Positions 1 to 27,585 of a stretch of DNA of 56,697 nt are shown here, one piece after another. The stretch is from the sequence record PZ513998.1. One strand, 5' to 3'. Made by a program: the position numbers and the translations under genes. The stretch comes from a phage. How positions within the stretch are numbered: the first letter of the stretch is position 1; each line of letters opens with the position of its first letter. The notes below the pieces were generated by a model. The model was not told the origin of the DNA. It saw only the letters and a program-made list of their open reading frames with translations, and ran no database searches.

Positions 1-180
1 ATGGTGATCAGGGAAAAGAAAAACTGGTATTATTGTTCATGCGGTAAGCCGTTTAGATCTGAGGCTCGCAGTAGTAACGGGCTAGTTTTGTTTCGATTAA
101 AGTGCGTATCCTGTGGGATATATTCACCGTGGCGCGGTTCAATTGGGCTATGTGTAGCGACGCTTGACAGCACCACGTAA
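1..180 (+). CDS. hypothetical small Cys-rich protein (zinc-ribbon-like CxCG ... CxxCG)
   Basis: 59-codon ATG..TAA ORF at window start, below the ORF-track size cutoff; translation MVIREKKNWYYCSCGKPF...KCVSCGIY; its first 7 nt ATGGTGA repeat the last 7 nt of ORF 181-546. Confidence 0.3.
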   Translation: MVIREKKNWYYCSCGKPFRSEARSSNGLVLFRLKCVSCGIYSPWRGSIGLCVATLDSTT

Positions 181-546
181 ATGGGTAACTCAGTAAATTG
201 TTTCAAATTTTATGAGGTTTGTAATGAGTTTCTAAATCTACCGGTAGTGGCTATCGGGAGGCCTAGCAACGATTTATCATTACCGGAATTTAATTACTCT
301 TATGGCGTGGTGTTCCATGTTAACAACAAGTTGCTTAGAGTCCTAACCGTCCGATATTCTTATGGACACCGGAGGGCATACGTTAGGATCGACGACGTAA
401 GAACGGATTACCCTAATGTCACTTATCCGGTTTACGAGCCGGTTCTTTTCTCGGGGGAGATCGCCGGCGAATGGATACGAGGCGCAAAAAATTTATACCG
501 GAGTTATAGGGACACGCTAACGAACGTAAGGGGGTCTGTATGGTGA
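181..546 (+). CDS. hypothetical protein
   Basis: 121-aa frame-1 ORF; no motif recognised; lies between the two halves of the portal gene if the window is circularised. Confidence 0.3.
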   Translation: MGNSVNCFKFYEVCNEFLNLPVVAIGRPSNDLSLPEFNYSYGVVFHVNNKLLRVLTVRYSYGHRRAYVRIDDVRTDYPNVTYPVYEPVLFSGEIAGEWIRGAKNLYRSYRDTLTNVRGSVW

Positions 547-17613: not shown

Positions 17614-17835
17614 ATGAAGCCGGTAAATAATCCAACCTTGGATAAGACGATCGAGATTTACCAAGAGCGAGGCGAAAATATTTATTACGTTGTTGCGGGC
17701 GGTGTATGGATCGGGACGATTGCCAAGACACCACACCACCTCAAGCCGTGGACTTTCTGCGGGCAAGGTGTGAGCCTTGGCGGGGATTCCTTGGAAATGG
17801 TTAAAAAATCCGTGGTTACGATGCTCACACGGTAA
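17614..17835 (+). CDS. hypothetical protein
   Basis: 73-aa ORF. Confidence 0.25.
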   Translation: MKPVNNPTLDKTIEIYQERGENIYYVVAGGVWIGTIAKTPHHLKPWTFCGQGVSLGGDSLEMVKKSVVTMLTR

Positions 17836-18477
17836 ATGAGACGCGTTGATCCTAAAGACTGTTTAGACATAATCCTAAACTACCATTATGCGAAACGTCG
17901 ACCTAGCATATCTTACGCTTTCGGGTTCTTCGAAGACGAGGAGCTTGTCGGGGTTCTAACTATCGGTAAGCCGGCCAGCAACCCGCTATGTGTTGGAATA
18001 TTGGGCGAGGAGTACAAAAGCCACGTTTTTGAGTTAAACCGACTTTGTTTTATTCGTCCAATCCGTAACGCTCCGTCGCAGTTGATCGCCTTCGCTATGG
18101 CTGAGTTGAAAAGTGAAAACCTTGTCATCGTGTCGTATGCGGATCGCGGTATGAACCACAACGGATATATTTATCAAGCGTCTAATTTCATCTACACGGG
18201 GGCGACGAAAGCGCGCACCGATAAATACACGGAGCAAGGTAAACACTCTCGGCATTATCAAGGAAAGGAAAGCAAGACGTATCGACAAGTCAGAACATCT
18301 AAGCATCGTTACGTTTATTTTACGGGGAGCCGTTCGGTCGTGAAGAAGTATAAAAAGTTGCTTCGATATCCGGTATTGCCTTATCCCAAGGAAGAAAATA
18401 AAAATTATGTGCTCGGATCCGAGTACAAGCAAGAACTCGTTAAGATTAAAGGGGGAGAAAATGAAGCCGGTAAATAA
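17836..18477 (+). CDS. hypothetical protein, possibly GNAT-fold / Mom-like modification enzyme
   Basis: 213 aa; pattern NYHYAKRRP...YAFGFF...GVLTIGKPASNPL...ELNRLCF...LVIVSYAD...HNGYIYQASNF recalls acyltransferase-like phage proteins; recall-based and weak. Confidence 0.25.
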   Translation: MRRVDPKDCLDIILNYHYAKRRPSISYAFGFFEDEELVGVLTIGKPASNPLCVGILGEEYKSHVFELNRLCFIRPIRNAPSQLIAFAMAELKSENLVIVSYADRGMNHNGYIYQASNFIYTGATKARTDKYTEQGKHSRHYQGKESKTYRQVRTSKHRYVYFTGSRSVVKKYKKLLRYPVLPYPKEENKNYVLGSEYKQELVKIKGGENEAGK

Positions 18478-19218
18478 ATGACTTTCATTTCTAACGTTGT
18501 AACCGATAACAGCCCTTTTGATATGCCCGAAAGTGTTCGTAATTATATTTTGACAGTTAACCCTCGCGCCAAGGTGGGCGATGTTAAAACATTATCGGGG
18601 GCGATAGCATTAATTGCGGATTTCGATAAATTCATTCCACTAGCACGTTACCTATTTGAGAGCGTCGAGGTGAGCGTGTTCGATCATGGTGCGAGCTGTC
18701 ATATGGCCAATGATGCGGACTTATCCGCACGAACTATCGCCGTAATGAAAGCGCTGGGGTTCTCTTTAGACCTTGATAAATCTCACGGAGCGACAACATT
18801 TGCGAAAACAATCGACGGGAAAGAATTAAAAGCCATATTTTTTAGCCGTGGCGAAGAAGCCGAAGGTTGGGACATAACTTTCACGATCGGCGGGTGTGTG
18901 ACGCTTAAACGTAACGCGGTTAGCGATTTAGACGCCTTGATCTTGGCGTCACTCCCTGAAAGTTTCGACACAATGCGCCCACTGTTAGACGGCCTGTCAA
19001 GCCTTGGTTTCGAAGTGAACAACGAAGCATCAGTTGACGGGCTTACAGTGTTCTACTGCGAAGACGACGGGCGAGAAATCCACGTGAAAGATGGCGACGT
19101 GTTCGGGCATTTTTTCGCGGTCTACTTCGTTGATGGTAAAGACGTTGCGATACGCGCGAATCGTCCGGCCGAAATTATTGTTCGTGACGCCTCAGAATCG
19201 TGGACGTGGGAGGGTTAA
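18478..19218 (+). CDS. hypothetical protein
   Basis: 246-aa ORF. Confidence 0.3.
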   Translation: MTFISNVVTDNSPFDMPESVRNYILTVNPRAKVGDVKTLSGAIALIADFDKFIPLARYLFESVEVSVFDHGASCHMANDADLSARTIAVMKALGFSLDLDKSHGATTFAKTIDGKELKAIFFSRGEEAEGWDITFTIGGCVTLKRNAVSDLDALILASLPESFDTMRPLLDGLSSLGFEVNNEASVDGLTVFYCEDDGREIHVKDGDVFGHFFAVYFVDGKDVAIRANRPAEIIVRDASESWTWEG

Positions 19219-19285
19219 GTGAGTAATATAATACTACCGCTTTCAGGTGTCAACAAGTTTTTTATAAATATTTTAGGCAATAAAA

Positions 19286-19327
19286 AACCTCTTACCGTGG
19301 CACCGAATAAGAGGTTTTAGTTGTTTT
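19286..19327 (+). terminator. intrinsic terminator-like hairpin (AACCTCTTA / TAAGAGGTT stem, 13-nt loop) followed by a T-rich run
   Basis: perfect 9-bp inverted repeat at 19286-19294 and 19308-19316, then TTTTAGTTGTTTTC; lies just after ORF 18478-19218. Confidence 0.5.
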
Positions 19328-19404
19328 CATGTTTTCAAATCAAGGCTATATTAACGGATATTTTTCAACTTGTAAACAATAAATTTCTCAGCGGAAAAGA
19401 AAAA

Positions 19405-19422
19405 AGCCCGCATATACGGGCT
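19405..19422 (-). terminator. hairpin AGCCCG-CATATA-CGGGCT preceded by an A-run (terminator-like on the minus strand)
   Basis: 6-bp stem, 6-nt loop; AAAAGAAAAA immediately upstream on +, i.e. a T-run after the hairpin on the minus strand. Confidence 0.35.
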
Positions 19423-19425
19423 TAA

Positions 19426-19995
19426 ATGGCAGAATTAGCATACACTAAAGCGTCTATCTTCCAATCTATCGTTGATGATGTTAGTACGGGTCTACCTAAA
19501 GGAACTTCATTAGATACCCGCGGAGATTTCGAAAATCAATTACGCGACCTTTTCGAAGAAAATAATCTTATGAATGCGCCGGAATGTATCAGCGTCGACT
19601 ACTTCGGGGAAGCATGGGAGATCGTCCAGTCTAGCGAGTTTGATTCTGTTGAGCTAGAAACGCCTTTAGATTTCAGCGGGTGCAAAAGTTCATTAAAATG
19701 TTTGATGATGGAAGCTAACGCATTAATAAGCGCGTCTTGGCGTGAACAAGTGGAAGCCTACATCGAAGAACTGGCCGAAGCACTGGAAGAAGTTGTCGAG
19801 GGTTGCGAGGAGTTCGGAACAATCGACGAACTGGTAATCACTGGCGGGTGCCGTTTCGGTCACATTCCACACCTAAGAGAGTTCGATGCTGGCGACTTTT
19901 CTGTGTGCATGTGGGCGCCGAACGAAGCCGGAGAGTCTGAAATTTATTATAATTTCCGAGGTCTGGAACTGCGCGGGGTTGTATATCATGGGTAA
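19426..19995 (+). CDS. hypothetical acidic protein
   Basis: 189-aa ORF. Confidence 0.3.
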   Translation: MAELAYTKASIFQSIVDDVSTGLPKGTSLDTRGDFENQLRDLFEENNLMNAPECISVDYFGEAWEIVQSSEFDSVELETPLDFSGCKSSLKCLMMEANALISASWREQVEAYIEELAEALEEVVEGCEEFGTIDELVITGGCRFGHIPHLREFDAGDFSVCMWAPNEAGESEIYYNFRGLELRGVVYHG

Positions 19996-20373
19996 GTGGA
20001 CGGTGTGACATACTTTTCATCAGTTCCTAAAGATACCAATTCACGCCGGGCGAGATCCCGGCTTTCTTCGTTCTTGAGTCCGCACGAAAAAGAGTTACAA
20101 CTATCTACGCACGACATACAGACTATTTTAAACCTAGCTAATGCGTTTTACTTCCGAGCTGATCCGGAGAGTAAACCGGCTTACTCAGACAACAAAACTA
20201 TTGTAAGCCTTCGCATATCCGGAATAGTCGAAGATGATCGGGGCTGGCTCATTATCCGCCGGCATTTCCTTAATTCTGGTCAGTGCTGGAAGACGTTGCA
20301 CTTAGAGGTTATTTTTACCCACATAGAAAATCTGACCTTATGTGAGTGTAAAATTCCCTATTTCCCCGATTGA
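19996..20373 (+). CDS. hypothetical protein
   Basis: 125-aa ORF, GTG start. Confidence 0.25.
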   Translation: MDGVTYFSSVPKDTNSRRARSRLSSFLSPHEKELQLSTHDIQTILNLANAFYFRADPESKPAYSDNKTIVSLRISGIVEDDRGWLIIRRHFLNSGQCWKTLHLEVIFTHIENLTLCECKIPYFPD

Positions 20374-20565
20374 ATGATGAAGAATAAAATCACATTAAAC
20401 AGCGGTATGATTTTAATCGCTGACGACGAAAAAGTTACGGTAAACGCAGACGGTTCGCTATTCTGTCCGGCGTGGGATATGCGCTTTATGTTAACTCGTA
20501 ACATTTCATATAATCGAACGGTTACACATCGAGAGGTGAAAAGTTTTGAGCGATTATACAGTTGA
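20374..20565 (+). CDS. hypothetical protein
   Basis: 63-aa ORF. Confidence 0.2.
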   Translation: MMKNKITLNSGMILIADDEKVTVNADGSLFCPAWDMRFMLTRNISYNRTVTHREVKSFERLYS

Positions 20566-20808
20566 ATGGCTAAGAAATTAAATAATTTAGAGGCTCGCGG
20601 GGCGTTTGGTTTTGTCGTCGCGTCTCTTTGTGCGGTAGGGTTCGCGGGGGCGGTGGGAACTTTGGCCGTATATGGTGATCTAACCGTCGCGCGTTTCTGT
20701 CTTTATGGGGTAGCGTTTGGGGTGGTCGGCGGGATTGCGTGGCCTGATCAGGAGAGCGGGGAGGCGTTTATATCTGCGATACGTGGGGGCGGTAATGATG
20801 AAGAATAA
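20566..20808 (+). CDS. hypothetical small membrane protein
   Basis: 80 aa; Gly/Ala-rich hydrophobic helices (FGFVVASLCAVGFAGAVGTLAVYG, VAFGVVGGIAW). Confidence 0.25.
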   Translation: MAKKLNNLEARGAFGFVVASLCAVGFAGAVGTLAVYGDLTVARFCLYGVAFGVVGGIAWPDQESGEAFISAIRGGGNDEE

Positions 20809-21135
20809 ATGAGCAAACAAATTCCTTTCGATCTTTTCCGTTCTGCGCATCGTCTGACTGTCACAGGGATCGAGGCGAACTATGAGCAATATGTCGTTCT
20901 CTCCCATAAAGCCGACGCGGATTATCTGGAAAAGTTCATCGATAACTTATTGAATGATTTCCCTTTCCCTGTTGCGATATCAGAAGAAAGAGTGAGTAGC
21001 CCGTCTTCTGTAATTATCCGGTCGGGCTTGATGGTGTCCGAGATTAAAAAGGATATAAAAAGCGGTAAGGTGGCTAATATGTATTTATCGGAGCCGGTTC
21101 GAACTCGCAACGATAATATTATTATTCACCCGTAA
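20809..21135 (+). CDS. hypothetical protein
   Basis: 108-aa ORF. Confidence 0.25.
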   Translation: MSKQIPFDLFRSAHRLTVTGIEANYEQYVVLSHKADADYLEKFIDNLLNDFPFPVAISEERVSSPSSVIIRSGLMVSEIKKDIKSGKVANMYLSEPVRTRNDNIIIHP

Positions 21136-21233: not shown

Positions 21234-21262
21234 TCTCAGCACACAAACAAACTGATTGTACT

Positions 21263-21450
21263 TATCTACAAAAATTTCGGGCTTACTTCAAAAACCTCGC
21301 GGGCCGATGATTTTCTGTGACGATTTAAAAACTTTTCCGGCCGGCTTACTTCAAAAACCTCGCGGGCTGAAAAAATTCCCGTGAGTGAGAAATAAAAACC
21401 GGCCAATGGATTTATCTACAAAAATTAGAACCTTACTTCAAAAACCTCGC
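21263..21450 (+). repeat. three direct copies of a 19-bp motif CTTACTTCAAAAACCTCGC plus two copies of TTATCTACAAAAATT
   Basis: 19-mer at 21282-21300, 21345-21363, 21432-21450; TTATCTACAAAAATT at 21263-21277 and 21412-21426. Confidence 0.85.
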
Positions 21451-21474
21451 CGGTTGACGGAAATCCTCGGGTAA

Positions 21475-26844: not shown

Positions 26845-27585
26845 ATGATGATCAATCCCTACGCGGTGGAATTACAGAAATTGAAAGACGCCAAGAAACA
26901 CATTCCAAAGCAGATAAAAGACCAATGGCGTACTCCGGACTGGCTTTTCTACGCGCTAAACTCTTTATACGGCCCGTTCTTGGTAGATTTGTTTTCAGAT
27001 GGACAGAATGCTAAGTGCTCCCGGTATTTCATGGCCGAGGATAATGCGCTACAACAGAACTGGAAAGAAGCACTAGAAGACGCCAAGTTTGAATTCCTTA
27101 TCGATGCAGACTGTGCGGGGTACGATGCTACTGACGATCTAAAGACGGCCAAGTGTTTTGCTAACCCGCCATACAGCCCGGCTAAGTATATCGGTAAAGG
27201 GCGTAAGAATAGAATACCGCTCTGTGGTATGCGAAATATCATGGCTAAGGCCTACGAGGAACACAAGGCCGGTTGCCCTTCATTCTGGTTGCTTAAATCC
27301 GCCACGTCAGAAGATTGGTGGCCTAACGAGACCGCAAGCCAGATAATCCACATCAAGGGTAGAATTGCTTTCGAGAAACCGGTGTGGTTTAGAGATGAGG
27401 TCGTAGACCGCGTGGAAAGTAGTGCTGCTTTCGGTGCGTCCGTTGCTATTTTTAACGGAATAAACGATATTCAAGAACCGGAAGCCTACATCAGTCGAGA
27501 TACCTTAAAATTAATAGGGGAGCCACTTGCTGAAATTAATGCGGAAAGACGCGCCGAGTGGATAGCTAGTTTCGACGATCTATAA
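26845..27585 (+). CDS. DNA N6-adenine methyltransferase (phage Dam family)
   Basis: 246 aa; N-terminal WRTPDWLF motif and catalytic NPPY (CFANPPYSP) as in phage Dam-type MTases. Confidence 0.75.
   Translation: MMINPYAVELQKLKDAKKHIPKQIKDQWRTPDWLFYALNSLYGPFLVDLFSDGQNAKCSRYFMAEDNALQQNWKEALEDAKFEFLIDADCAGYDATDDLKTAKCFANPPYSPAKYIGKGRKNRIPLCGMRNIMAKAYEEHKAGCPSFWLLKSATSEDWWPNETASQIIHIKGRIAFEKPVWFRDEVVDRVESSAAFGASVAIFNGINDIQEPEAYISRDTLKLIGEPLAEINAERRAEWIASFDDL

Follow-up and report, generated by a model that had tools for sequence, protein, structure and literature searches.

A Mom-like gene of Escherichia phage E21 and its predicted action as a stand-alone adenine-modifying enzyme

Does the 213-aa protein encoded at positions 17836..18477 (+ strand, ATG start) of a phage DNA record modify DNA, and if so, does it work in the way that Mom of phage Mu does? 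An earlier note, made from the letters of the whole 56,697-nucleotide stretch (hereafter the window), had proposed a GNAT/Mom-like modification enzyme at this locus. The protein is 100% identical to YP_009998122.1, the gp18 product of Escherichia phage E21 (NC_052983.1 / MN604053.1; Casjensviridae, Lavrentievavirus), and is referred to below as gp18. It was analyzed with Pfam, PHROG, AF2, fold and dN/dS comparisons. The Pfam Mom profile PF25680, which has a curated gathering score of 27.1, matched residues 2-185 of gp18 over profile positions 5-202/202 with 121.4 bits and E=5.2e-35; with the same model Mu Mom scored 253 bits versus the 121 bits of gp18. PHROG 1384, “Mom-like DNA modification protein”, was matched with E=1.4e-68, and a sequence search of the PDB retrieved 8bv8, “Methylcarbamoylase mom”, with E=3.8e-7. 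Profile-profile alignment (hhalign) of E21-type and Mu-type sequences gave a probability of 99.5%. Two further matches were set aside. The NCBIfam “XF1762 family protein” was sub-threshold (21.7 bits against a cut-off of 50), and matches of residues 131-176 to MRPL20 (E 0.08-0.6), likewise from the sequence search of the PDB, were disregarded as due to a basic, low-complexity insertion.

We consider it almost certain that gp18 is a member of the Mom family. This Mom-like identity is already known from RefSeq, several GenBank submitters, Pfam and PHROGs: RefSeq names YP_009998122.1 “Mom-like DNA modification protein”, and the same label was used by submitters for Proteus phages P2-71, Inception, Jing313, PM87 and others.

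Acetyl-CoA-dependent GNAT acetyltransferases are defined by the motif A P-loop, Q/R-x-x-G-x-G/A, located between beta4 and alpha3. A regular-expression search for this CoA-pyrophosphate motif ([QR]xxGx[GA]) across the entire gp18 protein found none, and the beta4-alpha3 junction of gp18 reads FIRPIRNAPSQ. The AF2 model of gp18 is a GNAT fold whose last strands are separated by an insertion; the insertion itself (residues ~131-148) has a pLDDT of 61-75, and no HTH was modelled there. Many CoA-dependent acetyltransferases are present among the structural matches of the model. The solved structure nearest to it is that of Mu Mom, 8bv8, by a clear margin over the others, and the best BFVD match is Orf128 of Lactobacillus phage LP65 (TM 0.87). 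Structure prediction and fold comparison, together with PF25680 and PHROG 1384, therefore bear out the proposal of a GNAT/Mom-like modification enzyme.

Mom of phage Mu, the founder of the family, modifies the adenines of DNA and so lets the phage evade bacterial restriction enzymes. The reaction of Mu Mom was recently reconstituted in vitro by Silva et al. (Nat Commun 2026; PMC13219725). Glycine is transferred from Gly-tRNA-Gly to adenine N6 in dsDNA, and the resulting glycyl-dA is converted, by rearrangement on the base, into N6-carbamoylmethyl-dA; ~20% of dA carries the modification, within an SAS context (PMC13219725). R111 and S124 are indispensable to catalysis, R151A has no detectable activity in vivo, the activity of H58A, Y59A, Y159A, W48A, W181A and R111K is drastically reduced, and that of D149A is greatly reduced, as shown in earlier work (PMC13219725). 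W48 is a residue of the homodimer interface, an HTH-like insertion, 175-209, is required, since its deletion abolishes activity, and a basic N-terminal segment, 11-19, contributes to activity (PMC13219725). Mom is proposed to bind tRNA in a FemX-like and DNA in a TacT-like manner (PMC13219725). The same residues, numbered lower by 10, had been mutated by Karambelkar et al. 2020, and Mu Mom was reported to bind acetyl-CoA (PMC7261163). The acetyl-CoA/Fe radical mechanism put forward in that work was set aside here because the later in vitro reconstitution needs Gly-tRNA-Gly.

The earlier note had also pointed to a conserved-looking core, and the alignments confirm it. All six motifs are present in gp18 (NYHYAKRRP at residue 15, YAFGFF at 27, GVLTIGKPASNPL at 39, ELNRLCF at 66, LVIVSYAD at 96 and HNGYIYQASNF at 108) and lie on invariant or near-invariant columns of a 27-sequence family alignment with relatives at 51-73% identity. 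In the N-terminal part these columns are H17, Y18, R21, P23, F29, G30, T42, G44, K45, P46, S48 and L51, and further on E66, L67, R69, S100, D103, H108, G110, Y111, Y113, Q114 and N117. To compare residues with those of Mu Mom, columns were counted in a 238-sequence MAFFT alignment that includes 120 E21-type and 116 Mu-type sequences. BLASTP and hhalign both place the Mu active-site pair H58-Y59 at H17-Y18 of gp18 (codons at 17884..17889, + strand). In the same alignments R111, essential for catalysis (PMC13219725), corresponds to R69 (18040..18042, +), and the likewise essential S124, the residue changed in the catalytically dead S124A crystal form, to S81 (18076..18078, +). D149 and Y159 correspond to D103 and Y113, the ends of a loop, D103-R-G-M-N-H108-N-G110 to Y113, encoded at 18142..18174 (+). 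Each of these six residues is found in 120/120 E21-type sequences.

The same loop departs from Mu in that G105 stands at the position of R151. In this column the 120 E21-type sequences have Gly (77), Gln (27), Ala (11) or Glu (3) and never Arg (0/120), versus Arg in 116/116 Mu-type sequences; R151 is a feature that defines the Mu-type subfamily and not the Pfam family as a whole. H108 is present in 120/120 E21-type sequences and is invariant in that group only. Residues 131-148 (18226..18279, +), the region of low model confidence, are a shortened counterpart of Mu insertion 175-209; the basic residues K136, H137, R139 and H140 are invariant within it, and the columns of Mu W181/H183 are gapped in 120/120 E21-type sequences. 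The column of Mu W48 is variable in the E21 type, being L10 or K7 in gp18 depending on the alignment. Past the PYPK motif gp18 has a C-terminal extension of ~28 aa (18391..18474, +) with subfamily-invariant Y191 and G194.

In a word-indexed search the E21 protein had 7,410 relatives and Mu Mom 843, and PF25680 was found on every match listed in these searches. By these counts the E21 type is the commoner form of the Mom family in the searched database. Its carriers are lytic phages, such as Listeria A511-like and Staphylococcus Twort-like phages, Lactobacillus phage LP65 (Orf128) and Acinetobacter phage JeffCo (gp55), as well as phages of Vibrio, Arthrobacter and Mycobacterium. A literature search found no experimental report of DNA modification by the E21-type subfamily. 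Across the subfamily > 50 positions are invariant, and the Mom copies within Lavrentievavirus are 96.7-100% identical to one another. Between gp18 and its counterpart in pPM_01 there are 21 nucleotide and 1 amino-acid differences (dN/dS 0.012), and between gp18 and that of PM87 43 and 5, respectively (dN/dS 0.037). Judged by the sequences of these two related phages, gp18 is under strong purifying selection.

Some unusual relatives were encountered. A Mom-like GNAT domain lies inside phage proteins of ~400-700 aa called “homing endonuclease” or “endonuclease-like” (PHROG 3339 and BFVD matches), carried by Campylobacter phage CP21, Pseudomonas phage PA5oct and uncultured Myoviridae. In some Staphylococcus and Bacillus phages the Mom gene appears split into 2-3 tblastn pieces and may be an interrupted gene. 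Genomes 93-97% identical to E21 over the region bear the host labels Proteus, Salmonella, E. coli, Pseudomonas aeruginosa, Staphylococcus ureilyticus and Enterococcus durans, some of which are probably wrong; Providencia phages also match the region.

Comparison with the natural record revealed that the window is an artificial re-orientation and rebuild of the phage E21 genome. The two are not collinear and align in 67 blastn segments. Each minus-strand CDS of the E21 record is individually placed on the + strand in the window with its record position kept, 1,870 nt of the record, mostly intergenic, are missing, and four-base start/stop overlaps are duplicated, with the result that genes abut exactly. 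Two ORFs unannotated in RefSeq have been moved to window positions 1-546 from their natural site between gp19 and gp20 (record 19875-20413); neither has a Pfam or PHROG match. Since minus-strand CDSs are flipped and intergenic DNA is missing, the gene order, operon structure and promoters of the window are not biological. With the order reversed in the mom region and the regulatory DNA gone, all gene context given below was taken from the natural record (locus L001), and context-based inferences drawn from the window need to be re-checked against it.

The rebuild also affects the translation start of mom. In the natural record the annotated ATG has an in-frame GTG 9 nt upstream of it, and a Shine-Dalgarno sequence, GGGAGGG, stands 7 nt before that GTG (L001 8208-8233). 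The upstream start is used by RefSeq for pPM_01 and for PM87, where it is an ATG, and the 216-aa protein cluster P0001 agrees with it. The true start of mom is probably this GTG, which would give a protein of 216 aa. The 12 nt containing it were dropped from the window (site 17827-17838).

On the natural coding strand the order is gp20, the two small unannotated ORFs, putative terminators, gp19, mom, gp17, a putative terminator and gp16 onward. The gp19 gene (246 aa, ORFan, phrog_38602; 18478..19218, +) is naturally immediately upstream of mom in the same unit, but is downstream of it in the window. The gp17 gene (73 aa, ORFan, phrog_37849; 17614..17835, +) is naturally immediately downstream, its start overlapping the mom 3′ end by 17 nt, and is followed in the natural genome by a terminator-like hairpin with a 12-bp stem and a T-run, identified by sequence match. 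The E21 genome has exactly three copies of a 96-nt promoter-leader module, which lie upstream of gp20, gp19 and gp16 (L001 5897-5992, 7374-7469 and 9136-9231; record 17763-21058), each at the head of a short unit made up of ORFan genes. By sequence match, the module consists of TTGACA-17-TATATT (11/12 consensus positions) followed by a conserved leader containing CCGGAACGAACCGG. Only one module core is left in the window, on the wrong strand: TTGACA-17 nt-TATATT at 19225..19253 (-), now downstream of gp19 and opposite to it, is the predicted natural driver of gp19-mom-gp17.

A tblastn search with Mu Com found no homolog in either the window or the record (best E about 6), and the 380 nt upstream of the gp19-mom-gp17 unit contain no GATC, versus three clustered sites in Mu. 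The sigma-70-like promoter and the lack of Com and of a GATC cluster suggest that expression is probably by host RNA polymerase and early in a lytic infection, unlike the late, multiply gated expression of Mu mom. The first of the two ORFs at window 1-546 (59 aa, window 1-180) has a zinc-ribbon-like CxC...CxxC pattern. This Cys-rich protein was considered as a candidate Com and rejected, as it has no family match, is unlike Mu Com and belongs to a different transcription unit.

Is mom part of a larger pathway? In PHROG and Pfam searches, neighbours gp15, gp16, gp17, gp19, gp20 and further adjacent ORFs had only matches to lineage-restricted families of unknown function or none. The Mom homologs of Acinetobacter phage JeffCo and of two metagenomic phage contigs lie amid unrelated small genes, and when genes up to 3 kb from Mom were compared across four independent phage contexts by tblastn and all-against-all blastp, no shared neighbour emerged. 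A multi-gene modification pathway was rejected on the ground that no conserved partner gene is present in these four contexts. Phage-encoded tRNA genes, whose presence would have been suggestive in view of the tRNA-dependent mechanism, were not found in E21. Elsewhere in the genome, three direct repeats ending in CGAGGTTTTTGAAGTAAG (in two of them CCCGCGAGGTTTTTGAAGTAAGCC) lie at L001 4388-4586 (about window 21256-21474), where the leftward block of genes (gp23) and the rightward one (gp24) meet in a divergent junction; they may be sites of operator or iteron type.

The earlier note had also mentioned a Dam, and this was found to be correct: a Dam-family DNA N6-adenine methyltransferase is encoded at 26845..27585 (+), with a PF05869 match of E=9e-30 and an NPPY motif. 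By coordinates this ORF is gp35 of RefSeq E21, where it is named “phosphoadenosine phosphosulfate reductase”, a product name that looks wrong. By analogy with Mu Mom, gp18 would most probably be a second adenine-directed modification function beside the PF05869 Dam.

The following mechanism is modelled on Mu Mom. Acting alone and on host aminoacyl-tRNA, gp18 would bind double-stranded DNA, flip out an adenine and pass an aminoacyl group to its N6, the most probable group being glycine from host Gly-tRNA-Gly. The adduct would rearrange on the base to N6-carbamoylmethyl-adenine, and this bulky group would shield phage DNA from host restriction endonucleases. The mom gene would be expressed as the middle gene of gp19-mom-gp17, behind the sigma-70-like promoter and up to the terminator-like hairpin. 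As a whole, this statement of a stand-alone Mom with Gly-tRNA-dependent adenine N6 modification and an anti-restriction role appears probable to us, with a good deal of room for doubt. The target sequence motif of gp18, like its donor, product and anti-restriction role, we infer by analogy.

One alternative is that gp18, although of the Mom family, differs from Mu Mom in chemistry or specificity, using another aminoacyl-tRNA or acyl donor, forming another adduct, or acting on another DNA motif or nucleic-acid substrate. [quoted passage not shown] On the other hand, R111, S124 and the four other active-site residues are all kept, randomly picked metagenomic Mom homologs were active in the same assay as Mu Mom (PMC13219725), and the changes in the insertion are expected to alter the DNA motif rather than the chemistry. 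We regard altered chemistry or specificity as unlikely, though well worth keeping in mind. Slightly more doubtful still is the proposal that the E21 type as a branch is mechanistically distinct, with an adduct, aminoacyl-tRNA or motif other than those of Mu Mom.

Two further explanations would deny gp18 a role in DNA modification. It could be an ordinary GNAT acetyltransferase that depends on acetyl-CoA and has a protein or small molecule as its substrate, as its fold, the many CoA-dependent enzymes among its structural matches, the acetyltransferase label on relatives in Bacillus phages BC-6 and PSYJ-YH and Listeria phage vB_Liva_VAfA18, and the acetyl-CoA binding reported for Mu Mom (PMC7261163) might suggest. 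Alternatively, with the essential R151 and part of the insertion lost, it could be an inactive relic or a non-catalytic binder of DNA or tRNA, given that R151A and deletion of the insertion each abolish Mu Mom activity and both features are altered in gp18. A relic is, however, difficult to reconcile with the low dN/dS values and with the invariant positions, all other catalytic residues included, of a subfamily that outnumbers the Mu type; the strict conservation of the loop that replaces R151, H108 included, points to a remodelled rather than a decayed active site. Since Mom is clearly the nearest relative, there is no P-loop, the Mom-specific Arg does not vary and gp18 is under strong purifying selection, both explanations are very improbable, and neither more so than the other.

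The Mu mechanism was established only in 2023-2026, and with Mu Mom now a Gly-tRNA-dependent DNA aminoacyltransferase (2026), every Mom-like gene becomes a candidate for tRNA-dependent hypermodification. The lack of R151, the invariant His108, the truncated insertion and the absence of Com/Dam/OxyR control make the E21 type a concrete test of the generality of that mechanism. Should the E21 branch prove distinct, most “Mom-like” phage annotations would refer to an uncharacterised DNA hypermodification. Lavrentievavirus phages are under development as therapeutic phages against Proteus, and bulky adenine adducts in their genomes would bear on how they evade restriction, on their host range and on how their DNA behaves in sequencing.

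How does gp18 compare with known systems? Classical acetyl-CoA GNATs (2bsw, 1y9k, RimI 5isv) have the GNAT core fold in common with gp18 at 7-16% identity, but the motif A P-loop is missing in gp18, the basic insertion is missing in them, and their donor differs from that of the characterised Mom family member. The tRNA-dependent GNATs (FemX, L/F-transferase, MprF and PacB, and the toxins TacT and AtaT) combine the GNAT fold with aminoacyl-tRNA as donor or substrate, but their acceptors are peptides, lipids or tRNA and not DNA; among the matches listed in the sequence and fold searches with gp18 they did not rank above generic GNATs. The PHROG 1384 / E21-type proteins are 52-73% identical to gp18 over the full length, match it in length (median 213 aa) and have its invariant residues; gp18 shows no substantive difference from them and belongs to this subfamily.

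The closest characterised system is Mu Mom itself (8bv8, PF25680; UniProt “Methylcarbamoylase mom”), which is of the same Pfam family, matched across the whole domain. The two proteins have in common a GNAT fold in which an insertion separates the last strands, the absence of the CoA P-loop motif, and the residues H58, Y59, R111, S124, D149 and Y159, kept in gp18 as H17, Y18, R69, S81, D103 and Y113; each is the product of a single gene without a conserved partner. Against a Mu-like mechanism count an identity of only 26% (BLASTP), Gly105 in place of the essential R151, an insertion ~12-15 residues shorter that lacks the W181/H183 stretch, and the absence of the basic N-terminal segment and of a conserved W48. 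The loops read D-x-G-M-N-H-N-G in the gp18 type and D-E-R-C-G-R-x-G in Mu. Furthermore, gp18 starts where the Pfam domain starts (Mu residue 39), without the 38-residue N-terminal extension of Mu, and has the conserved tail of ~28 aa, whereas Mu Mom ends at the PYPK motif. The settings differ as well. Mu is a transposable temperate phage whose mom operon has a com translational activator overlapping mom, a Dam/OxyR-controlled GATC cluster and a late C-dependent promoter, while gp18 comes from a virulent-type Casjensviridae siphophage whose unit has, in place of com and the Dam/OxyR-type GATC cluster, a predicted sigma-70-like promoter. In virulent phages, expression of E21-type genes seems to be early and to start at a strong promoter of the host type, with none of the layers of control that stop Mu mom from killing its host.
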